Assembly (NCBI RefSeq): GCF_009834535.1
Contig: NC_045696.1
Location: 86,120,001 to 86,184,000, forward strand
Direction: 5' to 3'
Length of the DNA stretch: 64,000 bases
DNA from: Camelus ferus
Lineage: Eukaryota
Each line of letters begins with the position of its first letter. Positions within the stretch are counted from its first letter, which is position 1. Shown here in pieces: positions 10,097-63,416 of this stretch. The notes under the pieces were generated by a model, which had not been told where the DNA came from, did no database searches, and was given only the letters and a program-made list of their open reading frames with translations. Position numbers and translations under genes: made by a program.

Positions 10097-10900
10097 CAGA
10101 ATGGCCATCATTCAAAAGTCCACAAACAATAATGCTGGAGAGGGTGTGGAGAAAAGGGAACCTTCTTACACTGTTATTGGGAATGTAGTTTGGTGCAGCC
10201 ACTATGGAAAACAGTATGGAGATTCCTCAAAAAACTAAAAATAGACTTACCATATGATCCAGCAATCCCACTCCTGGCCATATATCCAGAGGGAACCTTA
10301 ATTCAAAAAGATACCTGCACCCCAGTGTTCATAGCAGCACTATTTACAGTAGTCAAGACATGGAAACAATCTAAATGTCCATTGACAGATGACTGGATGA
10401 AGAAGTTGTGGTATATTTATACAATGAAATACTCCTCAGCCATAAAAAATAATGAAATAATGCCATTTGCAGCAACATGGATGGACCTGGAGATTGTCAT
10501 TCTAAGTGAAGTAAGTCAGAAAGAGAAAGAAAAATACCATATGTTATCACTTATATGTGGAATCTAAAAAAAACAAAAGACATTTATTTACAACACAGAA
10601 ACAAACTTACAGACATAGAAAACAAACTTATGGTTACTGGGGAGGGGAAGGAGGTAGGAAGGGATAAATTGGGAGTTCGAGATTTGCAGATACTAACTAC
10701 TATATATAAAATAGATAAACAACAAGTTTCTATTGTATAGCATAAGGAACTATATTCAATATCCTGTAGTAACTTATGGTTAAAAAGAATATGAAAATGA
10801 ATATATGTATGTTCCTATATGACTGAAGTATTTTGCTGTACACCAGAAATTGTCACAACATTGTAAACTGACTATATTTCAATAAAAATATTTTAAAAAA
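10097..10900 (+). mobile_element. Relatively young 5'-truncated L1 (camelid L1_Vpa-like): ORF2 C-terminus, 3' UTR and A tail
   Basis: ORF 10190-10567 [28 protein letters not shown]...MPFAATWMDLE. AATAAA at 10881 followed by an A-rich tail. Preceded by a ~55 bp MLT1 end. Confidence 0.95.
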
Positions 10901-17421: not shown

Positions 17422-17549
17422 TTTTTTAAAATTCTTTTAGTGGGGATGTTTGTTTATTTGTCTGTTTATCTAAATAGAAGTACTGGGGTTTGAACCCAGG
17501 GCTTTGTGCATGCCAAGAATGCACTCTACCACTGAGCTATACCCTTCCC
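17422..17549 (-). mobile_element. tRNA-derived camelid-type SINE (Vic-1-like)
   Basis: Minus strand GGGAAGGGTATAGCTCAGTGGTAGAGTGCA...GGGTTCAAACCCCAGTAC (A and B boxes), A-rich tail, imperfect TSD ttagttggctta/ttagttattctta. Confidence 0.85.
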
Positions 17550-29505: not shown

Positions 29506-29561
29506 AAGCAGATTTTCAATTTTTCTGTTTTCAAAGCAGATTTTCAATTTTTCTGTTTTCA
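29506..29561. repeat. Perfect 28-bp tandem duplication
   Basis: aagcagattttcaatttttctgttttca x2. Confidence 0.95.
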
Positions 29562-35583: not shown

Positions 35584-37544
35584 CTTTAATTTTTTTTTAA
35601 CAGTTAGTAAAACATGAGTCCTTTTCCAGGCAAGTTAAAAAAGAGAAATAAGAAAAATACACCCTGGTGAGAAATTATAAATCTTTAAAATTGATACTAC
35701 TAATATCTGGAAAGTTAAAAATATGGAAATTGTGTTATTTTACAATATTGAAGTTCCTAAAGTAGTAAAAGATACCCATAGCAACATTAAAACATTAAAA
35801 AGCCAAATAATTACTTTCTGTCACTGTATAGCAGTGTTGGCAAATCTTCAAAAAAAACTATGTTTGTTAAAAATTAGTATTTGCCATTAATTGCTAATTT
35901 ACTAGTATGTGCACATTATTTTTAGTAATCATGGTTAAAATTAATTTCCCTAATTATCTCATTGCCTAATTAATATATTTTATTAACTGGAATACTACAT
36001 CCTCTGATAATATAATAGAATTTTCTATTTATATATATAAAACATATATCTCAATTTTTAGCTTCGGAAATGTGCCACTGTTAGATAATTCTTGGCAGTT
36101 AATACCTAACTGGATTAAGAATTCTTACTTTGAACATCTGGGGATATTTGCTGCCAGAAATTGTCCTTGGCTTGTCCCCATCTCAACCATTATTGTTTAA
36201 ATATCATCTAATTATGAGGATTTTTTTTAAGTGTAAATCCAGTATAAGAACTATAAACAGTTATCAGTATATATAATCATTAAAGCTTCCACACTTTTAT
36301 ATATTTCAACATGATGTATTATGTAAATATGCAAAGAATAAAGAAATTCATTATTTGATGTATTGTACAAAAAATTTGATTTAATCTCTGATAACTCTCT
36401 TGGAGAGTTCCCCCCCCTCAAATTGCTTTATAGCCTAATCAGATTCTAAATCACATGTTTTTTTGGATTTTTTAAAGAAATATTTTATTTATTAGAGTTG
36501 TCATATAAAATTTAATTGAAAAGCTAATATTATTTTGACCTTATTAACAGCTTAAATACATAATATTTGATCCTTGTTAAACTATTTTATTACATGTTGA
36601 CTGTGCATATTTTATATTCATTGTAATTTTATTATAAAATGTTGAGATATAGACTGTATTTTCCAAATTGTTTATTACACACACACAATCATGCACTGTG
36701 TACAAATAGAAAAAAAGAAAATGTAAAGCATGTTCATAGATCACTACAAGACAAAGTAGAATGTGTCAGCAAAAGATGACACACTGTAATATAGTAATAC
36801 AGATGAGGGAAAAAAAATCCTTTCTGGAAGAAACTAGGTATCCTAATATTCTTAAAGCTCTCAAGAAGTAATTACACAGTTTTGAGAAGGTAGAAAAATA
36901 TATACCCCTAACGTCCCAATTCTTCAAATGTTTTCTGTGCTTTATTACAGCCTCAGGTTTATATGTGCCTCAAGAGCCAATGAGGCTATTAGAGGCAACA
37001 GCATTACCAGATTCCTCCAGAACTTTCTCCCTATATTTGTTAAAGAAAAAAAAAAGTTTTAGTCTCTTAAGCCTTAAGCAAAAGTAACACAACTCACAGT
37101 TCTTAACTGTGGGGAGGGAAAATGGTGAGTACATTCCAAAACTTTACAGAAGTCTTTCTTTTGATTTTTATTGAAGCCGTGGAGTACTCTTTCAGTCCTG
37201 ATTCTGATGAAATAATCATAGTTCTAATTAATTTCTAAAAGTACATCCATTTTAGATTTTCTTTCCCTAAAAGTAGTGGAATTGAGGCAAGAAGTAACCA
37301 ATAGAGCATTTTTTTTCCAGTAGAGCATTTTTATGAACCTCTTCTTAATAATTCTTTCTACAAAGAAAATTAAATTTGTCCAGTGACAGTTTTTTATTTG
37401 TGCATTACATTCTTAAAGGGAACTTTTGTCAGCTAATCTGTACCTACAATAAAGTTCAAAAATACTTGCAAGGGACCTTCTAGTTTACCTTATGAAAACA
37501 CAAAGGAGCAACTTTTTCAGCTGCAGAATCACAATGGCCTGCCT

Positions 37545-42884: not shown

Positions 42885-42982
42885 CTTGAGTCATTACGTC
42901 TCAACACTGTAGACACTCGATCTTGATTCTCAGTATTTTCAAGACAAATTTCCGGCTACCATTCTTATTCTTCCAGTCTCAC
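42885..42982 (-). pseudogene. Exon I, 98 nt, phase 0>2 (putative cytoplasmic)
   Basis: gtttttgttttgtttttttgtttag| ... CAAG|gtaaac. Reads VRLEE*EW*PEICLENTENQDRVSTVLRRNDSR. Confidence 0.65.
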
Positions 42983-45867: not shown

Positions 45868-46149
45868 TGATCTTCGAGCTTTATAGATTATTCAGGGAGA
45901 AACTGATCTTAATCAAGGACAATGGCCAATTAGTTGATATCTTGTTGGAACATTCCAACTGTAACAAATTAATTCATATATCCAAAGGCCAACAGTATTT
46001 TTTTTGTTTCATGCCATTTCTGGGTTCTACTCGAAGACAGAATATTTATCAACATAGAAAGACTCAGAGGCATATTCCATCGAACCTATTATTTTCTTGG
46101 CTCTATACTCTCACATTTGTGAAATGTATTTCAACAGTCACAATAGTTT
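45868..46149 (-). pseudogene. Exon F, 282 nt, phase 1>1
   Basis: tgttttcttttgtttag| ... GATCA|gtaaaa (weak donor). Reads ETIVTVEIHFTNVRV*SQENNRFDGICL*VFLC**IFCLRVEPRNGMKQKKYCWPLDI*INLLQLECSNKISTNWPLSLIKISFSLNNL*SSKI. Confidence 0.5.
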
Positions 46150-48587
46150 CTAAACAAAAGAAAACATAATGCCATGTTTGTCAATGGTAGATTAGCCATT
46201 TCACTCATATTCATTGCACTCAGTATATTACACTAGGGAAATAGTTTAAAAAGAGCAGAAACATAAGACTCAATTAAAAAATAAATATGTGTTAGATAAA
46301 TAGACAATACTTTAAAAAAATTATGTAAGCTATGTTTTCTTGATTATGGATTTTATTGTGATATTTAATATCCCATTCTATAAATTATACTTTTGATTCA
46401 GTAACAATCATAATTCCCATAAAGTATGTTTATCCAGGATTTACTACAAGTCATTATTGCCAGAATTCTCTGAAAGAATTCAAAATGTAGTGAATTAAGG
46501 TTAATTCCTTACTGAATAGGGTTTGAAGATTCTAATTAAAATTCAGGGAAAGCAGCCAACATTTTTGGCATACAATCCACAGAAATACATCCACATTATT
46601 GTTAAGTAAAGGGGTATTAATTTTTTGTATTATAATGAAGATGAGATTCAATTGAAAATAAAGCCAGTCATATAGAGAGGATAATCTTATCAAATATTTC
46701 TTTAACATTTCTATTTCATTAATGCTAGCATTTTCCTATTTCTTCTGTTCCAATAGAAAATTAAGTTCTTATTCATCTGTGTTAATTATAGCAACAGCTA
46801 AATTTGAGAACTAATGGCTAAGATGCTTAACCTTGAGCTTAATATGACAGACTTTCTGTTTAAGTCTATATGTGAGAACAGTATGGTTCTATGACTGTCA
46901 GGCTCATGAATTGGTAGAATCCAAGTATTATGCTAATTTGACATCCATATCTTATCCAAATATGTTTTATTCTCTTAGAATACTAAAACTGAAGGTAAAA
47001 ACCCATCATTTTAAGAAAAGCTAAAAACTTCAAACACAGGCCAACAATCCATTTTTACCTAAATTTTAAAATGTAAAAACATTTGTCAAAATAGGTTTGA
47101 ACACTTCTATTGTGCTTAATAGACAATTTGTTAATTCAGAAGCTTGCGTGCCCATGCAGTGTTAGTTCCAAACGTATAATGGTCTAGCTGTATTTATTTT
47201 TATGAAAGGTAGGCTGAGTTAACTGCAAAACATGCAAGCTAGACATTTCAGATTCTAGAAATAATAGCAAACAGAAACTAATCATACTATTTTAATAGTG
47301 ACAAGTAGAACTCCAAAGTAGTGATTCTGTACTTTCCCCCACAATATTTCTCTAGTGTATCCTTCTCCGGTTTCTATCATGGCTTCTCTTCACTTGGATT
47401 CCTAAGACCCTACTCTCCCATCTCCCTACACTTACTAGTCCTGAGGTCACACATTCGAAGTTTTAAAGATCACGGCCATTGTTAATGATTTCCAAGAAAT
47501 CCAACTGTTCTAAGTTCCTACTTGTCACATTTACAGGAATTTCTAGAAGACTGTAAAAAATCAATTATATTTCCTTCTGCTTCAAAGATAACACAAGCAA
47601 AACTTATGAATGCTTCTTAACATACTGCCTTCCACTCCACAGTTCTTATGGTTCTGTAAAGGGCTTCACCATTCTTTATGTTTGCCCTTCCTTTGACAAC
47701 CCTTACTTTTAGTATTTCATCATATCTCGCTTTTTCTTTCTAATAAATTCATCCTTCCATTTCTCTTTTTACTACTGCCACCGACTCTCTAGGTCCACTG
47801 CACCCTCGACTTTCAAAATTGCTTTGCAGAATATTACCTTTTTTTCTCTCTTAACTATCCAACATGCATTATTAAAAAAAAAAAGAAACTTTATAGAAGA
47901 CTATTTTCTTTCTTTGTTCTTCTGTTCAGAAAGTTAAAAATAATATTAATCATAGCAATAAAAATACCATTTACCAAATCATTATATTTCAGACACTGTG
48001 GTGGCTATTTAAAATACATTATCATATTTAGTCCAACCTTTTGAACTAAGTATCCTTATTGAAACTTACAGAGAAATTTTTAGCAGCTCAGAGAAGTTAA
48101 ACAACCTACAAAAGTCGAGTAGCATACATCAGGGCCCAGCTAGTAATGTAGGTCTTCTGTTAAACACTCTCCCATATTGTACACGATCAAAGGGCTTTTG
48201 ATTTCCAGCTCTAACAAATTCAGCTTCTGCTTATTAGTAAAGTGTGATTTTTTCAAGAAGAAACTTATGACTTTTAAGAAAATGTCAAAAATTTTGTTTA
48301 ACTCATTAACTAATGAAATCAGTAAGATGTCATGACTAGCTCAAGGAACATCTAAGAAGTTAGAGTACCAAGACAACTCAACAAAGAAAAGTTAGAACAT
48401 AATTTCTGAGTTAGATATGAAAAAATTCAATGTCCGCAAGGCCGTATCTCTTTAGGGTTACCTGTTCCACTGAACTGAAATTACTTGCATCTCTATTGAA
48501 CAAACATCTAGAAGTTAGCAAGTAACTTCAAAAAGCCTAGGACCTTTAATCAACAGTAATTGATGACATGAACTAAGGACATTCCCC

Positions 48588-48895
48588 TAGACCACCATAG
48601 TGCAGTAGAAATGCAATGTAAGCTATACACAGAATTTTTATTTTTAGTAGACTAAAAATTAAGAGATAAAATTAATTTTAGTAGTATATGTTATTTAACC
48701 TAATATATCCAAAATATTGTTACTTCCAACACTGAATCAATGTAAAAACTTAAGAAGGTATTTTGAATTTTTTTCACACTAAGTCTTAGGAACCTGGCTT
48801 ATATTTTCACTAACAGTATCCTTAATTCAGACAAGTCATAAGTTAAGTGCACAATAGTCACATGTGGCTGTGCTATCTTACTGGACAGTGTGGCC
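48588..48895. mobile_element. MER33/MER3-like hAT-Charlie MITE
   Basis: aagtgcacaatagtcacatgtggctg...tactggacagtg; ttatttaacctaatatatccaaaatatt. Confidence 0.75.
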
Positions 48896-49139
48896 TTGGA
48901 TAATCTTTGGGTGGCCTGTTTCCCTGTATGATATGTCACCCACATTTTATGGCCTTATTTACAAGTTTCAGACAGTTTTCTGACAAGGTAAACTTTAAAT
49001 ACCATCCATGAGGTAGAAAATCATCTCTCTCCAGGAATTACTTACCACCCTTAAAACTCAAGTCCACTAAACTGACTCATCGCACAAGGTTGGCCATTTC
49101 TTACCAAACTTTCATCACTTGCATGATTGTTTTGTTACA

Positions 49140-49350
49140 CAAGGTGCATTTTTGTTGTGTGCTAATTTCTCTATACACATCACTTCATTTAATCCTTAGA
49201 ATCATCCCAAGAACTAGGTACAATATTATTCCTATTTTATAGATGAAAAACCCAAAGGCATGGCTGGTTAAAAAACTTGGCCAAGGTCACAAAGGTAGTC
49301 CATGGCAGAGCTGGGATGTCAGCCCAGGCACTGTGTCTGCAAGGCTGTTC
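49140..49350 (-). mobile_element. MIR
   Basis: attattcctattttatagatgaaaaa...acttggccaaggtcaca...ggcagagctgggat...cccaggc. Confidence 0.8.
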
Positions 49351-49672
49351 TCTGAATGTTTTCTATCTTGCTGTAATATTTTAGTATACCAGTCCAGCCA
49401 ATATTAATAGGTAGTTTCCAGGGGCTCCATGTGTGTTTAAAATGAGTGCCACATAATTTAGCATTTATTTTTAGGTAATCATTATAGATAAACCATTTGT
49501 TTTCCATGGTTTATTATAAACTCTACAAGGACTAAGGTTATGATGTGTTTTCACCAACAGCATGCATTGCATAGTGAATCTGCTGAACAAGTAATTGATA
49601 CCCATTATGCTTACAGCCCCTTATTGTCTCCTTTATAACTGATGTTTATCTTGCCTACATAAAAAGCAAAAT

Positions 49673-49704
49673 GGCCTATAATGAAAAAGAATATGAAAAG
49701 GAAT

Positions 49705-49754
<50 letters not shown>

Positions 49755-49860
49755 GAATCACTGTGCTGTACATCAGAAATTAACACAACATTGTAAATCA
49801 ACTATACTTCAATAAAAAATGCACCCATTAAAAATAAAACAAAAACAAACAAACAAAAAA
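49673..49860 (+). mobile_element. Very short 5'-truncated L1 3' end containing a (GATA)~12 microsatellite, with TSD
   Basis: Matches the 3' end of the L1 at 10.8 kb. TSD aaaaagcaaaat (49661-49672) / aaaaagccaaat (49856-49867). Confidence 0.9.
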
Positions 49861-51799
49861 GCCAAATTATATAACTTCTCACTAGACTAAAAACTATGAT
49901 CAGGGAAAATACATCCTACAAGAAAAATAGGATGTAATAGGTAAATCAGTGGTCATGAAGTTGCTCCAAAAGGTTTTCAGGAAAAAGAAATCGAGTTTAT
50001 CGAGAACACCAGAACTTGGTGGAAACATTTTTCTCCTTGCTTTTGGACCTATCCTTGAATTCTGATTGGCTAGTGATGGAAAATGGTTGTCAAGTGTGGC
50101 TTACTAGACAAGGGTGGTAAAGAAAATCAATGACTATGTAAATAAAGTGATTAAACTGAAACACGATTTATCATTTAGCCATTAACTTTGAAAATCTGCA
50201 CTGCTTCCCTCAGGTTCCACAATTTACTTCCTGCCTAGAGAACACTGACTACATTTTATAGTACGAATGAGTTTGTCAAAACAGGCAACTCCTGGCTTTC
50301 CAATATCTTCTACTGACTTAAAGTAAATTAGTAGTAAAAGGAAAATTGTAATATAAAAATTTTGGCAAATATATTTTAGCCAGCTACTCTAGGTAAACAT
50401 AGATGATATGTTGTTTAGTAATACATCTAGAAAAAAGTGGGACAACGTGCTAAATGATTTATCCTTTGGTATTGCTAATATAGTTTAGGGGGCCCAATAC
50501 CCAAGGTCAGTGTTTCTAGAAGTCTTTATTCTTTTAGAAACTTGGTAAGTCAGTTCCCAGAAAATCTAAATTTAAATATTTTTGTTCAAAGGCTTACATA
50601 GGTGTCTTGCCCAGATTAGTCAACAATTTATTAGATAAGAATGTTTTAAAAATAAATTATTGAAGTAAACATTTTTGCTTGAATGTTTTTACTGAAAAAT
50701 GAATTTGTTAGGGTTCTAGAAAGTAACATCTTGTGAAAATTAGACTTTAAATTCTTTTTTAAAGAATCTTTCCAGTGACAATTAGACCCTTCAGACACAA
50801 GAGTAGTTTACTTTCAAACTACTACTTTTCTGAGTTTGTGCCTCTTTAGCTGGCTTCCAAGGCTAGTATATTAATTTTATATTTCTAAGTTTTTAATTTT
50901 TTCCACAGTGTGAGTTATATTAAATTAATGAAATACTAAAAAACTGAATATTCTTTGGCAGTGGTTTAAAAATGGTAGTTTTCATGCAGAACCATGCCCT
51001 TAGCCTAAAGTTTTCTTTATTTTCTCCAGCTAATGACTTTTGTTTTAGAGACTGTATCTGAGATGATGATGCGAACTGCTTAATAGTTGACCTTCCTATT
51101 ATCTTACAAATCTTGGATCACAAGTGTTCTTGTTTTTCCAATTCTGAATACTCAGTTTGTCATGGCTTAGACAGCATCATTTGAAATATTTAACACCTAG
51201 ATAAAGCAAAGGAATATAGGAGAACAAAATGAATTATACATAGAAACTTGCTTATTGACTTGAGATTTTTGTGAAGGTTTCCAATATGACCTTCTCTGTA
51301 AATGTAAAAAAGTAACTCTCACAAGTTTGAAATAGTTTTTATTTCAAGGGAGACCTGTTAAAGAACAGCATGTGCAACATTTAGCATGATTTTTGAAAAT
51401 CTTACAAAGTTTCAAAGTTACAGATTTCAAGGAATAATCTATTTTTGGTCTACTCTTCTTCAATCTGATGTATTCTGTTTTTCAGAGTTGTGCATATATG
51501 CTGCATATCAGATTTTAACTTTCAATTAAGAGGAAATGCTTGATCATTTTATTTTAATTGTGAAGAATAGTTTAGTTGTTAAAGTTTTTATTAAAATAGG
51601 TGGTCTTATTAAACTTGCTTCTTTTTTAAAGGAAAATAACTTTATTATTTATGATTTTTATATACACATTTCCTACTCCCTTAATTCCTTTTTCCAAAGT
51701 TGTGAATATAAGAAACTAAATGCCCAGAGAAACTAAATGTTGAACTATAATTCTACATTTTAAAACAACTTACCATAATTTAATTTGATTGCACCTTAC

Positions 51800-51812
51800 C
51801 ATGAAGTTTGAG
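51800..51812 (-). pseudogene. Micro-exon E, 13 nt, phase 0>1 (alternative donor would extend it to 51774, 39 nt)
   Basis: cattgttttcaaag|CTCAAACTTCATG|gtaagg; second donor ATG|gtaagt at 51774. Reads LKLH. Confidence 0.35.
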
Positions 51813-52005
51813 CTTTGAAAACAATGTTTTTAAAATTATAGAAATAGTCATAATTCCACGTGTTTTTTAAAGTGGAATTCTTTTGTCTAGCAATGGCTTA
51901 TGTTTTTAAATTCTTTGGTATCACAAACACATTCATAAGAGTTATGAATGTCAAAGTGAGGAATATTTTTAAGAGATGGTTAGTACAATCTTTATTTAGA
52001 GTAAC

Positions 52006-52216
52006 CTGTCTCACTATAATTTCACTCTGCATCTGTTGAGAATGTGATCATTCAAGTTGTTTTGTTTATAAGACAAAGTGTTGGGCATTGAAGTGAGATG
52101 CATTGAGATTTCAAAATTTAAAACCCTTTTAAATTAAACAAATAAAAGTATTTAGAGTGACTCATGCCTTTTCACAGACTGAGTTTATGTGTTAGAGAAA
52201 AATATGGGTAATATTC
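52006..52216 (-). pseudogene. Exon D, 211 nt, phase 2>0
   Basis: Strong acceptor ttttatgtctttggtctttcacag; weak donor CAG|gttact. Reads NITHIFL*HINSVCEKA*VTLNTFICLI*KGFKF*NLNASHFNAQHFVL*TKQLE*SHSQQMQSEIIVRQ; six stops, so the frame is uncertain. Confidence 0.45.
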
Positions 52217-52686
52217 CTGTGAAAGACCAAAGACATAAAATCAGAAAACAATGTGGGAAGTAACTTTATACTCACTTGGGTGTGATATATATGAGCTATA
52301 TTTATATGTATATATACATGTTGTACCTAGGAATTTTTATATGTATAGATATATAAATAGCCAGTTTCATTTACATCACTTAAAAGCAAAAAACAACAAA
52401 AAACCAAAACAGCTGAAAAGAATATTTTGCATTTATCTTAATGGTTAAAACCTAAAGAGTATAATTTAGTTCATGATCTAAGTTATAACATTGAAAATAT
52501 TTAGAGAAACAACATAAAATAAATTCTGATGAGAATAAAATTCTAATACCATCACTTTATACAGTGGGCTAATTATTATCTGAATAAGTTACGTTAGGCT
52601 ATTGTAAAATTTGTAACAGTTGAATAAACATTTTGTTTTGGATTAAAAAATACAAGCAGAAAAGTCAGTCTTGGCTCAAACATTTA

Positions 52687-52885
52687 CAGTTGAACCTTGA
52701 ACAACATGGGTTTGAACAGCACGGGTCCACTTACATGCAGATTTTTTCAATAAATACTACAGTAGTACTACATATCCATAGTTGGTTGAATGCACTTATA
52801 TAGGGGCTGACTATAAAGTTACAGGTGAATTTTCCACTATGAAGGCAGCAGCACCCCTAACCCTGGAGTTGGCAAGAGTCAACTG
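52687..52885 (-). mobile_element. MER8-like Tigger MITE
   Basis: TA|CAGTTGAACCTTGAA ... CAAGAGTCAACTG|TA. Confidence 0.85.
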
Positions 52886-53169
52886 TATTTGCAGTGTGAC
52901 GTGGTCAAGTCACAGAACATTTTCAGTCTCACTTTTATCACAAGAAAAATGACAATAATAGTTCCACTTACTTGTGATACATATCTATTAAGCCAGGACC
53001 TTGGCGTGGCAGGGTGGGGCATAAAAGCCCTGTAGGTGTCTTTTGCTTCCAATGATTGTAAGCACCATTACAGAATGCCTTTCTGTACACTATGTTTTGT
53101 ATATACACTAACTCTAATCTTATGATGTAAGTTTTATTAGTATCATTATAATATTATATTACGACTAAA

Positions 53170-53398
53170 TCAGGGTTTCTCAAGAGTGGCGTAATAGACA
53201 TTTTGGACAGAAGTCTTTTTGGTGCAGGGCCATTCTCTGCACCATAGAATGTTTAGTAGCATCTTTGGCCTCTGCCCACAAGATACCAATAGCACATATC
53301 CATTCGCCCCCCACTGCCCTAGTATGACAAACAAAACTGTCCCCAGATATTGCCAAACATCCCCTGGTAGGCAAAACTGACTGCAGCTGAGACCCATG
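53170..53398. mobile_element. MER20 (hAT-Charlie)
   Basis: cagggtttctcaa...tagaatgtttagtagcatctttggcctctgcccacaagatacca...cagatattgccaaacatcccctgg. Confidence 0.85.
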
Positions 53399-53413
53399 GA
53401 GTGTACTGGAATT

Positions 53414-54578
53414 CTAGGGGCCTGTCTAGTGATGACTGTGGGCTCTGTAGTCTTTCGGCAGCCTCTCTGCTGCTGATGGGTGGGGCTCTTTGCCCATACA
53501 GGTCGACCTCAGGTGTCCCAGCACAATCTCAGAAGGACTGCTCAAGTCAATGAGTTGCTTGCAGTTCCTCATCTGAAAACGATCCCAAATCTTAGAACAT
53601 TCACCACAAGTTTTCCTTGTAGTTATTCTCAGAGTCTTGGTAAGCATCCAAACTTGGTAGGCAAACCAAGATTCTTTTCCTTTGCGCTTCTGATAAAGTC
53701 AGCACATACCTTCTCCAAAGACTTCCAATTGAGGCTAATTAGGGTGATTCTAATCCGGTGAGTCGCCGCCTCTGGCTCCTTGGGAGTCTTTCCAGTATCT
53801 TTAAAAGCCATGCCTGCGGCGGGGCTTCCTGACCGACTTGCTCCTCAGCCAGAGCAAATAGAGGGAATCAGGAGCAGGAGTGGGCGGGACGAGGCTCTGC
53901 TGCAGCCACTACTGTCTCTTCCTCAAAGAGTTAATGGGTGGGGCCAGGTTTTAGCGCTAAAGAACCAAGATTTCAGCCGCCAGCCTCAGCAGTGCTACCA
54001 CAGCTGAATGTTCTCCAGTATGTCTGACACCAGGGTCTACGTCCCCAAGGTGAGCCGCAGCCAATCCCCCGCCTCCCAGGAGACTCTCTAAGACCAGCAG
54101 GTAGATCTGGCCCAGACTCCTATCAAATTACTGCTTTTACCCTGGGTCCTGGCACACTTGAGATTTTGTGTGGCTCTTTAAGAGTGAGGTCCCTATTTCC
54201 TCCAGTCCTGCGGGGCTCCTGCAACTAAGCCCCACTGGCCTTCAAAGCCAAGTGATGTGGCGGATCGCCAACCAAGGTTAGGAAACCTGATGTGAGACTC
54301 AGGACTCTCTCACTCCTGTGAGAGAACTTCTGCCATATAATTATTCTCCAGTTTGTGCGTCGCCAACCCCAAGGACGTTCAGATTTGATTATACTGCGAG
54401 TCCACCCCTCCTAGCGGTCTCCTTAAGGTTCCTTCTTTAGATCTAGTTGTGGAAGATCTTTTCTGGTAGATGCTAGTATTTTTCATCAGTGGAGGTTCTA
54501 CAGATGGATGTGATTTTGGTGTGCTGGTGAGAGGAGGGGAGCTGAGGGTCTTCTGCTCTGCGGTCTTGGCCACTCTCT
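53414..54578 (-). mobile_element. L1 5' UTR fragment (laurasiatherian type), interrupted by the RPS20 retrocopy
   Basis: Starts GGCCAAGACCGCAGAGCAGAAGACCCTCAGCTCCCCTCCTCTCACCAGCACACCAAAATCACA, typical of an L1 5' end with a decayed YY1 site. GC-rich. Resumes after RPS20 with GTGCTGGGACACC...CCCCACCCATCAGCAG. Confidence 0.75.
53522..53930 (-). pseudogene. RPS20: Processed pseudogene of 40S ribosomal protein S20; 5' UTR complete, frameshifted, 3'-truncated
   Basis: ORFs [48 protein letters not shown] and (M)[41 protein letters not shown] match RPS20 with no introns. The 5' UTR starts CTCTTTGAGGAAGA (TOP-like). ATG at 53811. Confidence 0.97.
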
Positions 54579-55024
54579 ATGTTGCAATGCTAAAGTGTTC
54601 CAGAGATCTGTTGGATTTTGATGGTGTAATATATTAAGATCCAAACATATATATATTTTTAAAAATTCAGTAGAACACAACAAGAACAAGCTTAATAATA
54701 CTTTTCTTTAAACCAGATCAAAATTAAATTGAATAATAATTACTTTTAAGGAAATAAAATTGAAACAAATTTTAAAAGAGGGAAAAGAGATACAGGATTT
54801 TTTAAAGTGAACCAGGCTACATCTACTTGTGTTCAAATGATTAGGCAAGTTGTCACCATCAACATTTACCTCAAAGATGCTAAACGTTCAACATTTGATG
54901 ACACAGACATGAAGCTCAGGGCAAAAACAAGTCACTTTAAAGGCCTGACCAATTTTCTAAGACTGAGGCCCCAAAACTTTCTTGGGCCTACAAATTGCCT
55001 ACAAACCATTTTATGTACATAAAC

Positions 55025-55146
55025 TCCCAGGTGTCAATGTCAGAGATTCAGACTCAGTAGGTCTAATCTAGGACTCAGAAATTTGCATTTTATTGGTACC
55101 CTAGAAAATCTTGATGCAGCGAATTTACCACACTTTGAGAAACTCT
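55025..55146. mobile_element. MER5A-like fragment
   Basis: cagagattcagactcagtaggtct...aatttgcatttt...accacactttgagaaac. Confidence 0.7.
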
Positions 55147-56653
55147 GGAATTTCATCTGAAAAAATTCTGACCCTAGAATTTCTTGGTGACATTCCATTA
55201 ATACCACCTTAAGGCTGAAACTGAACATCTGTTCCCCAAGATCAAAATGGAGCATGGTTAGGGTTTTGGCCACCATAAACTTAGAGAAAAAGGACTTGTG
55301 AATCTATGTGTGTGCTTATATGGAGTGTTATGATTTCAATTACTTAATTACTTTTGTGGAGAAAATTACTTTTCAGTAGAAAATTATACATTTTCTATAG
55401 TATTCAGTATGGATTAATCAGATTCATTATCTTTGCAACTGTGTCCTGTGATATTAATTTAACTGTGCACACCCCCACCCCCAGTCCCGGTGGGAAGTCT
55501 GTTTTGTCTCCATTTGCAATTTATTCAAAATTTCTTTATTTCATATAAATATGTGCTATTTTGACTTTTCTTTTTAACTTGTTATAATTTCTGCCTGGTT
55601 TCTTGATATCATATGAGTAAAATTAATTCCTCATTTTTATATCTGTATAGGCATCATAATTTTACCTTTTCCTGAAAATTACCTTTTAACATTTTTGAAA
55701 ATTTGCTTCATCATTTTGTAATACCATGAGTTGATGTTATTTTATTTCAATATTTGGGACTTCTTTAGCTGCAAAAGTTGGTTCAAAAGAAGCATACCTT
55801 TAGATGGAAGAATCTGATTGTTGGCTATCTTAAGTTATAATATTTAATTTTTAATCTGATCCATAAATTATTTAAAAATTTTATTGAATTCCAGCTAGTA
55901 AATTTTTGTGTCCATTGCTTCGAATCAGTTGATCTCACAAACTAAATAGATAATTAGCATTTCCATATTTTTGAGAAAATCAAAATCAACTGAACTTTTC
56001 TTTTGTAAGACCTTTACACAGATTAGAGACTTTCATTTAAATTTTTTTAACTTTATGAGAGTTTTATAGGTGACTTTTTTTCATATGAAAATCAGACTTA
56101 TGGAAACACTTCTAAATATTTTTTATAAGGTTCCCCAATAAAATGATCAAATACAATTGGTATTTCCATTTCAGGTAATGGCAGAAAAGTAATTTAGACT
56201 AGCCCTTTCACTGAGAACAACCAGCAGTGGTAGAATAAGGTTTCAGAAAGGTAAACAAAGACGCACTTTGTAGTCTAAAAAAAAAAAACAAAGTAAGCAC
56301 TGACAGTGTTTAACTATCAAGCTAATAGTGGACAAAAAAAAAAATGAGTAACAATAAAATATACCATGAAAAATTCAAAATCTAAAAGAAGGAAAATGAA
56401 GTAAGGCTTGGCGGAGTAGCAGAACCACATCAGGAGTCTCAGAAAAGAGAATAAAAGTGAAAAGGATAGAATGGATGGGATCAGACAGAGAACAGATTCA
56501 TACTTCCTCAAGAATTTGATTACTGTAATAATAAATGTTTTTAAGTTGAATGGAAAGATTATCTAAAACACTGACCCCTCATACAGAGATTTTCAGTTAG
56601 TTCCAGTTCTAGCAGATAAATAGATGATACATGTAGCCTGCCTAGGGCTTAGG

Positions 56654-56806
56654 TTTCTTTTTCTTATCTTTTCCTTTTTCTTTTCTTTTCTTTCCTTTCC
56701 TTTCATTTCCTTTTCCTTTTCCTTTCTTTTCCTTCCCTTTCTTTTCCTTTCCTCCCTTTCTTTCTCTTTCTTTCTTTCTTTCCTTCTTTCCTTCTCTTTC
56801 TTTCTT
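56654..56806. repeat. Polypyrimidine (TTTC/TTCC) low-complexity tract
   Basis: ~150 nt almost entirely C/T. Explains the F/S/L-rich ORF 56624-56878. Confidence 0.95.
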
Positions 56807-57086
56807 GGTGAGAACCTAGTCAGTTTCCTTTCTACTGCACAATTTCTTCATCTATTTCTACTCCCTGCCTGTTTCTGAGTTACTGCTCCATCCCTCATCT
56901 GATAATTGTTAGAAAGATGATTATTTCTATCTCTGAGTTTTGTAATCCTAATAATACTGTTTTTCTCTCTTTTCCTTCCTATAAAGTCAAGATATAAATG
57001 AGTGGATCTACAGTGTTTATCTCATGGAAAATAGTCATCAAAGAATTGTAGAACAGTGAGAAAGCAGAATGCAGCACCTTGCTTAC

Positions 57087-57343
57087 CCTCTAAGTGAAAT
57101 TTTTACTAATTAGAGTCCACAATAGGAGCTATAAGCTATTATATTTATTTGTCTTTCAATTCTCTTTAATAATCTGTCAAAACAGATTTGACAATGGATG
57201 CCACTGAGTATCGATCGGGAAACCATCAGTTTAAATTGGCAAAAATTTTACCCACAGGTCCAGTTAGAGAAAACATGTTTCCTTTTGAATGTAACTCTTA
57301 AAGCTTTGCAAGTATCTTATACTGTACCTGATTATCTGTACAA
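57087..57343 (-). pseudogene. Exon C, 257 nt, phase 2 start; one indel needed to end in phase 2
   Basis: cc(t)ncag| ... GAGG|gtaagc. Reads CTDNQVQYKILAKL*ELHSKGNMFSLTGPVGKIFANLN*WFPDRYSVASIVKSV, then after a frameshift RLLKRIERQINIIAYSSYCGL*LVKISLRG. Confidence 0.6.
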
Positions 57344-58777
57344 CTGAAAAAAAAAAAAAAGGTGGACTTAGTCTTATCTAAAATTACTGCTCAGACTGGA
57401 CAGAAATTTTTTGGCAAAAAAAAGTAAATAAAACAACAAAGCTAAAACTTTATCTCAGCATAGTTTTTGCAATACTCTATTAATGTATTTAAAGAAATAT
57501 TTAACAATTATGCATGCATGAAACTAATAGCTAATAAAAGATCAAATATTTATGACTTATAAGAAACAAAAGTTATAGAAATCTTTTTATCATCATCATC
57601 ATTACTGTTATTGTTAATGTTGCTGATTAATATTTATGTTCTAAGTACCATGCTGTCCTATTATTAAAGGAACAACAGGAAGAAATTGCCTATTTTTATA
57701 TTCCCATAAAAAGACAGTCTTTTGTGTGTCTAAACCAAGTAACCAATTAAATTATATGTTCACTAATTTGGACTTAAATATATTTAAATAATAAATATAA
57801 CCTGTCAGAGTGAAAACAGCAAAGGTTTTGGGAGTCCCATAGCCCACGTTTTGTGACAAGCTCAGATCACACATTTGTTCCATCATAGGCAAGATAGTTA
57901 ATAGTCTTTCACAGATAAAAGAAATTGTAGATAATAATATTGGGGATAATAAAGTTCCCATCTACTTATAAGGCTGCATAAAGGCTTAGTCATTAAAGTA
58001 TACTTAAAAGTATTTTACAAATAGAATGTAGAAATTAAATTTTATTTTATTTTTCTAGTGAATTCTAAGTTTATGCTAACTGAAAAAAAAGAAAAAAAAA
58101 AAAAGAAATGACTCTTACTGCTACATACGTTTTTGCATTATCAGCTAAGCCCAAAGCTGTGAATTTTTTTGTTTTCTTTTTCCTTGTCCCTAAATGTTAG
58201 TAACCAGCATTAGGTCTCACCTCATTAGTGATTTGACTATAAGGCCTTTCAATTACCTACTTCACATTATTATCTTTACCCCAGTGAAACATAATATTAA
58301 AAACAATGTAATATTTTAATATAAGACTGTTTTGAAGAAAATACTTTTATTACATGGCTGCACTTTTTATATAGCAAAATTAATGTGCTTTTGTGTGAAT
58401 ATTGTTGAGAAAGTCACTAAAACATTTTAGGGGTGGGTATTAATAATATGGTTAGAAGTAAAAATAAAAAATAAAAAAAAAATAGAAATAAAAGACCAGG
58501 AGGCAGTGTTCTGGATAATCTGCAAGAGAACTATGCTGGATTATAGGTCTACATAAGAAAGTTTGCAATAATCTATAAAAAAAAAACAAAGGTTGAACTA
58601 GGTAAGTAGAGATTTTAGAATTGGAAGATTTAGAATACAAACATATACCTAAAGAATAACTATTAGCACAAAACTTAGCTATATGAATATAACACTTTGT
58701 ATTTCATTCAAAGATTATTAATCTTTGACCTAAAAATACATTCAAAGATTATAAACATTCCAGAAGACAATAAGAAT

Positions 58778-58782
<5 letters not shown>

Positions 58783-58840
<58 letters not shown>
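58783..58840. repeat. (TA)~21 followed by a poly-T run
   Basis: Seen directly. Confidence 0.95.
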
Positions 58841-60477
58841 AAGAAAGAAGAAAAATGAGGTTTCACAAAAAGGGAATTTTTAAAAACTCAGGAATTCCTC
58901 TATTTTGAAAGATTAGCAACTTAGAATTCATTAAGGAAAATTCTCATGAGTGACTTTTAGTATTTTTTCTTCACTGAATCTTTTATCCTCTAAAACCTTC
59001 CTCAGCTGCTTAGATAAAGACTTAGCATCTGGAGAAACTTAAATCTGAAAATCAAATTACAGATTTGACTTTTGACTAAAAAAACTAAGTATGAAGTGAT
59101 TCATAGAATTCTATGTTCCATGACAAATTAAATAGTCTTAAGATACAGGCATATTTGTCATGAGGAGTTGAAAAACTGCTCAATTTTATATTCGTGGGTA
59201 AAGGTTAATGATCTTATTCAGTCTAAAGGATCATAGAAGCATAATACAATTATAAAAGGAATTACATATTAAATACTTATACCATTTACCTACCTACACT
59301 CAAATGTGTATCTCTACGTCATACCTATATCCATATCTATATCTCTGTATTTAGACAGTTAATTTGCAATTAATCTCTATGAGGCTAATGTTGTAGATGA
59401 GGAAACTGATGTTTCTAGGCTATGAACTTTTTCCAAAGTCATACAGTAATGAACGACAGAAGCATACTTTGAATCTTAGATGAGTTTGCTTTGGAAATCC
59501 TTCATTCATTCAGCACATTTGTTGCATGCCCTCCATGTCCTGAGTACTTTTTATTCTAGAGGTAAACTGGAGAAGAGGAGAAATCTGTCCCACCCAGCCT
59601 GCATGCCCCTTCTCTACCTAGTTTCCTGAAGACTGGTTAAAATGTGCTGTCCAATCTGCTTCCTCACTTGTTCTGGCAAGGGCACTCTCAGCCCTTGCCA
59701 CACAGACACCCGGCATTGCAGCTCGTGGCTGAGGCCTTTCCTCTTGATTCCCAGTTTACAGGTCCTTTTTACCACACCACAATCTGATAATGCAGGCCTT
59801 AGTGTGTTTTTAACGTTCTCTTAATTCACTTAGTATATAACTTAGGCTTCCAAACAGGTACATTTACTTTTCCAAGCCTCTAGGACACCCCTGTGCTGCC
59901 TCTGAAATGTGAGGAGAAATGCAGTTCCTACCTCATCGCAGCTGCCGTCACAAAGGATACAAATCACTGCTGTCAAATTGTCCTTGATGCAGCACTCATG
60001 GATTTTTAAGACACTTAGAATAAAGACATCACCCGTGCTGTGCTCAGTTAATTCTGCATGTATAGACAAGATGCCTTATAGAATCCAGGGATTAGTTTAC
60101 AGCTGGTTTAATTAAAGGACAGCACGTGTAGGAACAGAGTTCCTATTTGATTCACATAAAAAAAGAAGACACACAGCCAGTTAAAACATCACAGTATTGC
60201 CTGAAATCTCAGTATTATCTCTTGCAAATGAGACACAGTGAGGAAGAAACAACAAGCAAAACATTGCAAGTAAAGGATTTACTGACATTGGAAAAGGGAG
60301 TTGTAACAAACATTTCACAGTTATGCTTATTTGAACCTAACAACCAGCTTGAAATTCTTGGATATAGTAAAGAATATTAGTTATTAGAATATTTTAAGAA
60401 GAAAAGCAACTTTGAAAGCACACACCTGAAAAGTGATTCCATTTGTTTTTATTTCTATGTTGAACTCCCTCCCTTAC

Positions 60478-60641
60478 CCTGATAGCTTTGCAATTGTAAC
60501 ATTCACGGAGAACAAAATTGGCCATGAAGTTAAAATGAGATAGTGCATCTAAAAGGCCCACAGCTCCTACAGAACAGGTGTACACTTTATGTCAGAACTT
60601 TCACATTTTCTGTTATCATTAAAATTTGGTGATTTTTATAC
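60478..60641 (-). pseudogene. Exon B, 164 nt, phase 0>2
   Basis: tttgttcttgttag| ... CAGG|gtaagg. Reads V*KSPNFNDNRKCESSDIKCTPVL*ELWAF*MHYLILTSWPILFSVNVTIAKLSG. Confidence 0.55.
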
Positions 60642-61269
60642 CTAACAAGAACAAATTTGGTTCATCATGTTATAAAATTTCAAAGTAAGGGAAATGGAGC
60701 CACTTAAATAAAGAGAAACCACTAATCCTGGCGGTTTAAATCAAATTCTAACCTAAAGCAAAATATTGGCATATATTATACTCTGTGCAGAAAACATGAC
60801 TACTTCTCAGTAAGAATTCAGGGATGCAAGTATAGAAATTTAAATGTTTTGCTAGCAATTAAAAAAGTAGAAAAAAGAAAACATGATAGTTGCTATTATA
60901 ATAAATCAAAGCATATGTAAAAAAATGAAATATGTATATATAATGTAACAAAAATGTAATGACCTTTTCCATAAAGAGTATTTCAATTTTATGGCACCCA
61001 AGTTTACTTCACTTAAACATGGGTAAAGAGTAAAGGAATTCTTTTAAAATATACCAGTACTGGGACTAGGTAGCATTGATTCCTATAGTGAATCTTGACC
61101 TGTAAGTAGGTAGAAATATTGTATTCATTTTAGCATGTTTATGTAACTATAATGCTTGCACCTATTTTTTCTGATATGAGTTATAGATTACTTTAATTGT
61201 ATTTCCTAAAAAGATGAGCAATATTTCATATTTTTTCTTTCAGAGTTTTTTTTGGGTTTGGGTAGTTAG

Positions 61270-61620
61270 ATTCCTAGAGTTGCCATAACAAAATACCACA
61301 GACTGGGTGGTTAAACAGCAGGCACTTCTTGTCTGTAAGTTCTGGGTGCTGAACGCTCAGGGAAAGTTACCAGCAGGGTTAATTTCTCCTAAGGCTTCTT
61401 TCCTTGGCTTGAAGATGTCCACCTTCTTCCTGTATCCAGACATGGCCTTTTCTCATGGCCTTTTCATTCATCTCTGGTGTCTCTTTCTCTTCTTATAATG
61501 ACATCAGTCATATGGAATTAGGGCCCACCCTTTCTACTTTATTTAATCCTAATTACCTCTATCTCCAAATACAGTGACATTTGGGATTAGGCGAATTTTG
61601 AAGGGGACACAATTCAGTAC
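61270..61620 (-). mobile_element. MaLR LTR (MLT1B/C-like)
   Basis: gttgccataacaaaataccacagactgggtggttaaa...tctccaaatacagtgacatt...ggggacacaattcag. Confidence 0.85.
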
Positions 61621-61683
61621 CCCAGGACTCTCTTTCACTAGGAAAGGGAGGAGCAATTACATTTTAAAATGTTAATGGTTGGG

Positions 61684-63000
61684 TGTGCAGTAAAAGATTA
61701 TCCTTACTTAAAGAAAGGTTGGATCAGTAAAAGATTATCCTTACTTAAAGAAAGGTTGGATCCTTGACCAGATCCTGGGAGGTAACTTTTAAGCCCTTTT
61801 AATCTCCTGCCTACTAAGAGTGTCTTTGTTTACCAGAAGACCTTGGAATGTGCCAGAGAGTCCCGGATGCCGTTGTGATTAATGGTGGAGGCCTTGGACC
61901 ATGTGGTATCAACTTGACCTCTTGAGGGGCTGGAGAACTACAATACAAAGGAGTTTAGCCAAAATTGAAATTAAGGGCATAGTTTTCAAGACTGTCTAGT
62001 CTGCCCAAGTCTTCTGACCCAAATTGTAAGTTTAGGGCTTTCTCAGAACCATCTTTGGATCCAGTACTTTGCTAGCTTCACAGAACTCACTGAAAACTGT
62101 TATACTAATGGTCACATTTATTACAGGGAAAAGATACAAAGTAGAAATAATCAAAGGAAGAGACGAAAATGGAGAAATCTCCTCTGAGGGTTACAAATGC
62201 AGTTTCCACCCTTCTCCAGGATGCAGCACCATCTAGAATTAATGTGTGGCAATACGCATAGATTATTGACAACTCGGAAAGCTTACCCAAGCTTTAGTAT
62301 CGAGTTTGTTTATTGAGAGTTAATACATAGATATAATTGTTTGATTTGCTCAAGTGACTGAACTTAATCTAAAGCCCACTCCAACACCTTCCCCAGGTGA
62401 GATAGATGTCACAAGACCCAAAGCCTCAGCCCTCTAATCACATGATTGGTCTTTCTTCCCTGGTCAGCCCCCACCCTGACTCATCTTTTTCCCATAAACT
62501 ATTAGATGTGATCTAAGGGGCCCACCATGAGTAACAATGACACTCTTAGCACTCAGGAAATTACAAGAGTTTTAGAGGTTACTTCCTAGAAACCCAAACA
62601 AAGGCAAAACCTCTCTTTAGGGTACATATTCCTTGCAATACATAGACTGGCCACATGGGCAGTCAACCATGTCTAAGTGACCAACTCCTAATAAAAATCC
62701 TGGACCCCAAAACTCAAGTGAGTTTCCCTGATGGGCAATGCTCATTTCACATTGCCAAATATGGGGCTCAAAGGAGTAAGTACTGTCTGTCTGCACACTC
62801 CACTGGGAAGGACAACAGATAAATCCACACCTGGTCTTCCTGGACCCTGCCTTATGTATTCTTCCCTTTGATGATTTTAAACTGTATTATCTTATACATT
62901 TTTAATAAAATGTAATTTTGAATGTGATGGCTTTTCTGAATTCTGTGAGTTCTTTAAATGAGTCATTGAGCCAGAAGGTGGTCATGAGGACCTCCCAAAC
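61684..63000 (+). mobile_element. MER21-like ERVL LTR with a nested opposite-strand LTR (~61940-62642, MER77/MER21-like)
   Basis: cctgggaggtaactttaagccc-like motif, aataaaaatcctggacccc, gagttct...ttgagccagaaggtggtcatgaggacctccc; nested part has cacagaactcactgaaaactgttatact. Confidence 0.65.
61688..61761. repeat. Perfect 37-bp tandem duplication
   Basis: cagtaaaagattatccttacttaaagaaaggttggat x2. Confidence 0.95.
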
Positions 63001-63089
63001 AGAGCAGTGAACATGTGATCTGAGGTATGTCTTTCTCATGGCTTGATTTTGAGGATGGGGAAGAAGATGAGAACTATCACTGTACAGTG

Positions 63090-63416
63090 ATTCTTTTGGT
63101 TTATCTAGGAGTTATAGAAGCTATAATTCCACTAATTATTTTATTGTATCATGATGACACAGAAGGTAATTCATTGTCCTGAATGACAATGCAAACTCTC
63201 ATATTTCCCTTTTAGAAGTGATATAGGAGAACCAAATCAATCTGATAAACCTCCGAAGGTTTAGTTTTGGCAAACTGCGGATATTTGATTTGCTCACTGT
63301 CCAGTGAAATTTAATGACAACACACATTTTCTACCATTCCTTAGCAATAACAAGAACATTCGAGTCAGAGATATCAGGATTTTTCCTCATAGATATACCA
63401 AAGAATGTTTCCTAAA
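63090..63416 (-). pseudogene. Exon A remnant (Ig-like); donor not identified, so lower boundary is approximate
   Basis: Acceptor ttttctctctcctttcgtgtttatag. Reads ETFFGISMRKNPDISDSNVLVIAKEW*KMCVVIKFHWTV, then after a frame change DLVLLYHF*KGNMRVCIVIQDN: C, W and L-x-L...C spacing resembling an Ig fold. Confidence 0.5.

Follow-up and report, generated by a model that had tools for sequence, protein, structure and literature searches.

Exon-shaped fragments in a gene-poor stretch of the Camelus ferus genome: a possible remnant of a ZPBP-related gene

RESULTS

Candidate exons on the minus strand

The window analysed here, a 64,000-nucleotide stretch of Camelus ferus contig NC_045696.1 (positions 86,120,001 to 86,184,000), is gene-poor and carries exon-shaped fragments on its minus strand between 45868 and 63416 (Table 1). 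An initial annotation had read these fragments as decayed exons of a repeated, ZPBP-type Ig plus alpha/beta module, and all eight of the peptide pieces that it quoted were located on the minus strand. They do not form one continuous reading as presented, since their frames differ (KFHWT and LVLLYHF, for example), and the candidate exons are dense in stops and frame changes. The gene model assembled from them depends on some ten gaps or shifts of frame, whose positions were chosen by eye.

Table 1. Candidate exons and quoted peptides, in window coordinates
Feature	Position	Strand	Description
Exon A	63276..63416	-	Putative Ig domain, first half; L*LECS at 63370, FHW at 63309
Exon B	60478..60641	-	Putative Ig domain, second half; VYTCSV, in a frame other than that of the initial annotation
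Exon C	57087..57262	-	Putative alpha/beta domain, first strands and helix; FDRLLKRI
Exon X	52006..52216	-	Putative alpha/beta domain, second helix and last strand; VCEKA, AQHFV
Exon Y	50228..50316	-	Cys-rich, stop-free; CSQCSLG
Exon D	45868..46149	-	Cys-rich start, then putative second Ig domain, first half; LQLECS at 45964
Exon E	42885..42982	-	Outside the annotated interval; putative second Ig domain, second half
KFHWT	63312	-	Quoted peptide
LVLLYHF	63235	-	Quoted peptide
KGNMRV	63211	-	Quoted peptide
CTPVL	60584	-	Quoted peptide
ELWAF	60566	-	Quoted peptide
MHYLI	60548	-	Quoted peptide
QINIIAY	57151	-	Quoted peptide
IFCLRVEPRNG	46045	-	Quoted peptide

The reading of exon A, whose domain role we presume from the spacing in Ig domains and ZPBP, requires two frame changes. 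It has an alternative donor at 63298; the short form of the exon pairs a 6.2-bit acceptor with a 5.9-bit donor, and the long form, whose donor is weak, ends in phase 1. Exon B has an acceptor of 7.0 bits and a donor of about 10 bits, and with frameshifts allowed it scores 27 against the E-F motif of the initial annotation, which is not significant. The original placement of that motif at 63235 was rejected, since it scores 13 there and reaches 27 and 32 in exons B and E, respectively; the splice sites flanking the LVLLYHF site are poor, being equalled by those of 87% of 4000 random points. Exon C has a 9.8-bit donor, a presumed acceptor that lacks AG, and two stops in 57 codons. In exon X, ILNRCR reads in the frame next to that of VCEKA and AQHFV; its 11.5-bit acceptor is the highest among the candidates, its phase is compatible with exon C, and it was absent from the quoted peptides, its sequons excepted. 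The alpha/beta roles given to exons C and X are our assumption from an apparent resemblance. Exon Y follows this putative alpha/beta part, is compatible in phase with exon D (acceptor 8.7 bits) and holds the sole C..C..G site across the six frames. Exon E (acceptor 9.1 bits, donor 7.0 bits) is likewise compatible in phase with exon D. It contains the window's top acceptor-plus-motif site for the E-F motif, at 42949, which 50 of 300 controls equal, and it ranks highest in coding composition, at a level that none of 45 random stretches of matching GC attains.

Signals of an exon structure and their chance expectation

Modest signs point to true exon remnants. GC content exceeds that of the flanks in seven of seven candidate exons, by a mean of 0.061 (null -0.001, sd 0.058), which corresponds to a P of about 0.004 for exons that were chosen by eye. 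The C-X, Y-D and D-E junctions are all in phase when the motif-holding frames are used, an outcome expected once in 27 if the junctions are independent and if one sets aside that sites and frames were also selected by eye.

These two observations stand against the proposal that there is no gene here at all, and that AT-rich non-coding DNA and transposon debris yielded chance patterns once frames, frameshifts and splice sites could be chosen at will. We regard that proposal as a real possibility, if on the doubtful side, and much of the remaining evidence is in keeping with it. Stops are not depleted relative to a random frame (20 in 339 codons, with 22.4 expected), and splice-like sites occur about once per 380 nt on either strand, favouring neither (168 donors and 166 acceptors on the minus strand, 169 and 206 on the plus strand). 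Coding composition gives no signal in exons A to D, where 19-44% of random stretches equal or exceed the observed values.

All formal motif tests also came out at chance level. Four of the five pairings that had been drawn with ZPBP motifs were scored, the CTPVL pairing being left out, and equal or better six-frame sites numbered 131, 2210, 614 and 1014 of about 128,000, evenly between strands, so that the pairings carry no evidential weight. Sequons and spaced cysteines, which had been taken as signs of an extracellular protein, are not enriched and add nothing to the case. The sequon frequency is 0.56 per 100 codons on either strand (352 sites on the plus strand, 362 on the minus strand), and the 931 codons of exons A to D in three frames contain four; NIT and NAS are absent from the four quoted segments, and both lie in the separate segment 52216-52006. 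Cysteine makes up 3.2% of six-frame codons overall and 36 of the 931 codons in exons A to D. The B-strand Cys, C-strand Trp and F-strand Tyr-x-Cys of an Ig domain can be found in exons A and B once frame changes are allowed, and the minus strand has 18 such Cys...Trp sites, the plus strand 12 and the controls 20.6. When pairs were ranked by the two Ig motifs of the initial annotation together with splice sites, A plus B came 319th of 16,835 minus-strand pairs. On the side of a gene, an ordered chain of four patterns, shaped post hoc on this sequence, was found 31 times on the minus strand, never on the plus strand and in two of 40 controls.

A short motif repeated at matching distance

The pattern L.LECS has exactly two six-frame sites in the window, one in exon A and one in exon D, and the distance from its Cys to the exon end is 83 nt in the former and 85 nt in the latter. 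This coincidence, with its matching distance to the donor, also counts against an absence of any gene. The candidate exons that follow A and D are alike in starting at ag|GT and in containing VY[TS].

L.LECS, an Ig-type cysteine motif, is the one element that recurs, and the comparisons made did not reveal a repeat of a whole Ig plus alpha/beta module. Comparison of 13 candidates with the window by tblastn and blastn gave no internal homology below E 0.016. Frameshift-aware alignment was not significant for A against D (358 peaks equal; anchored rank 1336 of 2283) or for B against E (713 peaks equal; anchored rank 166 of 1478). A 5-of-6 word is common to A and D, as it is to about 8% of random pairs (118 of about 1500).

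Profile, database and structure searches

Pfam matches to Ig, SEA and the two models that we take to represent the ZPBP family, Sp38 (PF07354) and EGF_Sp38_C, were absent from all 101 references, and the remaining matches were sub-threshold. An empty profile search had been named as grounds for giving up the family assignment, and the outcome goes against it, in a test that is weak: the references were single frames with X at stops, on the minus strand they spanned about 9.4 kb of an annotated interval of 17.5 kb, and power is low for frameshifted pieces of 30-70 aa. The same scan gave the correct family for none of 12 references that evidently lie in decayed LINE-1 ORF2 sequence, a part for which Pfam possibly has no model. 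Exon Y gave a weak match, below the cut-off, to BaffR-Tall_bind (TNFR-type; E 0.006), its sole match and the sole extracellular family among Pfam matches on the candidate exons of the interval. Because irrelevant Pfam matches on such DNA reach E 0.001-0.06, this match is unremarkable among the 101 references, a point in keeping with the absence of a gene.

Protein word searches, with candidates limited to at most 2000 aa, confirmed none of three candidates for exon C, none of 360 for a mixed profile that combined B and C with the two halves of D, and none of 103 for another that combined X and Y with the originally annotated frames of A and B. A phmmer search of one frame of exon D against 1.84 billion representatives returned no matches. 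Across these protein-database searches no orthologue was found, with power falling steeply under 60% identity. At 50% identity the exon D phmmer search recovered simulated relatives in 4 of 60 trials and the mixed profile in 34 of 60; at 40% identity the figures were none and 8 of 60. Negative homology searches have little power under about 55-60% identity. The uniformly empty database searches favour the absence of a gene; given these recovery rates, they are also what would be expected of a gene so decayed.

Among PDB sequences the best match had an E of 0.4 and was unrelated; exon B gave a 6-bit match, below significance, to a strand of an antibody light-chain constant domain, and exon C gave none. 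The ESM Atlas offered no usable match (top value 0.86 for a stop-free part of B, none for Y), and AlphaFold modelled one frame of exon D alone at a pLDDT of 42. One of 454 metagenome stretches was confirmed as matching exon B and was rejected, being a bacterial gene of 62% GC with one common 8-mer; by its motifs we read it as probably subtilase-like. Rfam returned a single tRNA-like match, outside the annotated interval. Two RNA runs contained about 0.48 of the words of the 56-64 kb part, from about 835 million contig letters against about 2000 million in the DNA runs, and their word content is consistent with genomic background.

DISCUSSION

The exon-level signs described here, modest as they are (GC contrast, phases and the doubled L.LECS), lend some support to the initial annotation's view of these fragments as decayed exons; the link to ZPBP is presumptive. 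In frames other than those first proposed, the candidates run in what we take to be the ZPBP order (Ig, alpha/beta, Cys-rich), followed by a second Ig domain. The Cys-to-Trp spacing of the putative Ig domain is presumably similar to that of ZPBP, as is the splitting of the domain by a phase-1 intron. The top acceptor between exons C and D begins the segment that best extends this presumed order, a further point against chance patterns in non-coding DNA. Compared with ZPBP1 and ZPBP2, the locus has all of its frames broken and lacks a Pfam Sp38 signal, and the model has an extra Ig domain behind the Cys-rich part.

The signs of exon structure are independent of family, and they would serve as well for a decayed multi-exon gene of another extracellular family, such as an Ig-superfamily or TNFR-type Cys-rich receptor, whose likeness to ZPBP would be that of any Ig domain. 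The hints from the tools are generic in just this way, with a TNFR-type model on exon Y and an antibody constant-domain strand on exon B. Both hints fall under significance, however, and the presumed resemblance goes past the Ig domain into C, X and Y in ZPBP order; we consider this origin unlikely.

The interpretation that we put forward, tentatively and as something just short of an even proposition, is that the locus is an ancient pseudogene of the unitary type, derived from a gene for a ZPBP-related protein. According to this interpretation, a minus-strand gene of several exons would have been lost in the distant past, probably early in the radiation of placental mammals or before it, and would now be decaying neutrally with no protein made. 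Its ancestral product may have been an extracellular, ZPBP-related protein, in which A and B would form an Ig domain, C and X an alpha/beta domain, Y and the start of D a Cys-rich linker, and the end of D with E a second Ig domain; the frames, the domain roles and the age are our reconstruction, and the likeness to ZPBP is presumptive. The 5' end of the gene, with its signal peptide, would fall outside the window. No clear membrane anchor of the kind suggested by the initial annotation emerged in the window: a candidate at 33.1-33.5 kb has a hydropathy of 2.2-2.5, and 10% of 1278 random frames of 94 codons reach the nearby value of 2.0.

ZPBP1 adjoins IKZF1 and ZPBP2 adjoins IKZF3. An early idea that the locus was an ohnologue beside IKZF2/VWC2L was dropped, the window lying on a different chromosome segment. 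The literature searched yielded no account of such a locus, and the term 'ZPBP-like' appears in two papers as the title of a 2003 paper cited for ZPBP2. The eutherian unitary pseudogenes of gamete-interaction genes are, as the present locus may be, lost single-copy reproductive genes with broken exons. They were recognised by their resemblance to a known gene in the syntenic position (PMC3434135), whereas the protein-database searches made here gave no orthologue.

ZPBP1 (sp38/IAM38) and ZPBP2 are described as acrosomal zona-pellucida-binding proteins (PMC7827414, PMC13641138), and ZPBP1 knockout mice as infertile (PMC7827414). Provided that the family assignment is right, the ancestral protein most likely acted in the manner of ZPBP1/2, binding glycans or matrix at the sperm acrosome or a cell surface. 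A more specific scenario, which we consider rather improbable, takes the locus for the remains of a third ZPBP-family gene of vertebrates, encoding two Ig domains and, further downstream, a membrane anchor. This gene would descend directly from an invertebrate membrane-bound ZPBP-like receptor and would have been kept in non-placental vertebrates and lost in placental mammals, while the soluble ZPBP1/2 survived.

Should the gene prove not to be real, the locus shows how easily Ig-like motifs arise from AT-rich DNA under free frame changes. If it is real, an undescribed lost member would be added to a small family needed in acrosome formation and zona binding, and the locus would lead to an orthologue still alive in marsupials, monotremes or reptiles, as a candidate gamete-surface receptor.

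Results

GC content across the window is 30-40%, as in mammalian DNA, and no intact gene was recognised within the 64 kb. Seven segments delimited by AG and GT (C without its AG) were picked by eye as candidate exons of the proposed ZPBP relative.

Candidate exons and their boundaries
Exon	Coordinates	Strand	Description
A	63416-63276	-	AG/GT-bounded candidate exon
B	60641-60478	-	AG/GT-bounded candidate exon
C	57262-57087	-	candidate exon, AG absent
X	52216-52006	-	AG/GT-bounded candidate exon
Y	50316-50228	-	AG/GT-bounded candidate exon
D	46149-45868	-	AG/GT-bounded candidate exon
E	42982-42885	-	AG/GT-bounded candidate exon

Each of the seven exceeds its flanks in GC content (mean difference +0.061, P ~0.004 in a comparison with random AG..GT segments), a pattern that choice by eye may favour. 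For the motif-carrying frames, junctions C-X, Y-D and D-E are in phase. Exactly two six-frame sites carry L-x-L-E-C-S, one in A and one in D, lying 83 and 85 nt from the respective exon ends, and in both cases the following candidate exon (B or E) begins ag|GT and contains VY[TS]. In A+B and again in D+E, the predicted plan is an Ig domain interrupted by a phase-1 intron. Among the window's acceptor-plus-motif sites for the originally proposed Ig E-F-strand motif, E ranks first, with a score reached by 50 of 300 controls. The runner-up (37110-36930 (-), score 27-30), which follows a strong acceptor at 37106, may represent a third half-exon of an Ig domain, or chance.

The initial annotation had ZPBP-like motifs occurring more than once; the Ig-type motif L-x-L-E-C-S recurs, but no formal repeat test was significant. 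The comparison of A with D was equalled by 358 peaks and that of B with E by 713, and the anchored ranks were 1336/2283 and 166/1478, respectively. About 8% of random pairs have a 5-of-6 word in common, and A+B ranks 319th of 16,835 on the two Ig motifs originally proposed. A four-pattern chain occurs on the minus strand only, its patterns having been shaped after the fact.

The peptides first quoted as ZPBP-like are present on the minus strand, but in frames unrelated to each other. BLOSUM62 scoring in all six frames, applied to four of the five pairings, found them equalled or bettered at 131, 2210, 614 and 1014 of ~128,000 sites, with the same frequency on either strand. Sequons and cysteines, read earlier as an extracellular sign, have background density. 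Splice-like sites show no strand bias in the window, stops are not depleted (20 in the 339 codons of the six-candidate-exon chain versus 22.4 for a random frame), and A-D give no coding signal, their frameshift-tolerant composition score being that of ordinary stretches. Because all of these measures lie at background, the evidence in its original form is chance-level. That the whole consists of chance patterns, with no gene behind them, is a reading we take seriously while rather doubting it.

Much of 45.9-63.4 kb is, judged by eye, presumably repeat debris, including what we take to be LTR pieces (61.3-63.0 kb), DNA-transposon pieces (52.7-53.4 kb) and an L1 5' end or GC-rich 5' UTR-like segment (53400-54600). 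This last interval has the highest coding-composition score of the scan, on both strands. A perfect 37-nt tandem duplication (61688-61762) adjoins LTR-like sequence, and a second, of 28 nt, lies at 29506-29561. An inverted pair (11373-11495/52685-52803; 77% identity, 124 nt) presumably represents two relic copies of a Tigger-type DNA transposon. Elsewhere are a young L1 3' end at 10100-10900 (+), one frame of which resembles the ORF2 C-terminus (1 stop in 153 codons), and a tRNA-like Rfam match (17475-17546 (-), 38 bits), presumably the head of a camelid SINE.

The Pfam scan took in 101 single-frame references with X at stops; together they comprised ~9.4 of the region's 17.5 kb (minus strand), downstream candidates and 12 LINE-1 controls. 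None of the 101 matched Sp38, Ig or SEA; the scan had low power, and this negative is weak because no LINE-1 control found its correct family and irrelevant matches reached E 0.001. Three GC-richer segments behind good acceptors (26094-25975, stop-free for 40 codons, 21100-20960 and 20552-20230, all minus strand) gave no significant Pfam match. Word-index protein searches scored 0/3, 0/360 and 0/103 candidates as relatives, phmmer with D returned no match, and PDB, Atlas and AlphaFold yielded no usable result for the candidate exons. The sole metagenome match was ruled out as a relative, being a bacterial gene. The 2895-aa bacterial protein at L001 694-9381 (+), unrelated to the region, has many repeats and, as we read it, a subtilase-like N-terminal domain. 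In simulations of the scoring step alone, D recovered 38/60 relatives at 60% identity and 4/60 at 50%, and the first mixed profile 59/60, 34/60 and 8/60 at 60, 50 and 40%. It is therefore unlikely that other mammals carry a close orthologue in intact form, but a gene lost near the placental root would be compatible with the empty searches.

Discussion

ZPBP runs from an Ig domain through a helix to a second helix with the last strand and first cysteine, and then a Cys-rich piece. The preferred frames of A, B, C, X and Y appear to us to follow this order: A and B seem to carry Ig residues, C presumably a basic amphipathic helix (FDRLLKRI), X what we take to be a second helix, then the final strand and the first cysteine (VCEKA, AQHFV, ILNRCR), and Y presumably the Cys-rich piece (CSQCSLG). 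These anchors differ from those first proposed, and X was selected for its acceptor and sequons before its ZPBP likeness was seen. The reading requires some ten gaps or changes of frame, and the putative likeness is a lead. The suggested membrane anchor stays hypothetical, hydrophobic stretches as strong as that at 33.1-33.5 kb being common in the window. At 33460-33100 (-), a frame with 1 stop in ~110 codons and a hydrophobic stretch has a low coding score and no Pfam match; it is a possible membrane-anchor exon.

Overall, the original observation holds in part, and its interpretation is supported in part and unproven. We tentatively favour a ZPBP-related unitary pseudogene, a reading that falls just short of probable; a decayed gene of another family is unlikely. 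Given the outcome of the profile search, we leave the segments out of the Sp38 family. Two RNA runs contain about half of the 56-64 kb words, the genomic background expected from their contig total. If the stretch is such a pseudogene, it would make no product today, its exons decaying neutrally, and its loss would be very old because stop density is near random. The ancestor may have been an extracellular protein, ZPBP1/2-like in action; ZPBP1/2 are acrosomal proteins that attach to the zona pellucida (PMC7827414, PMC13641138).
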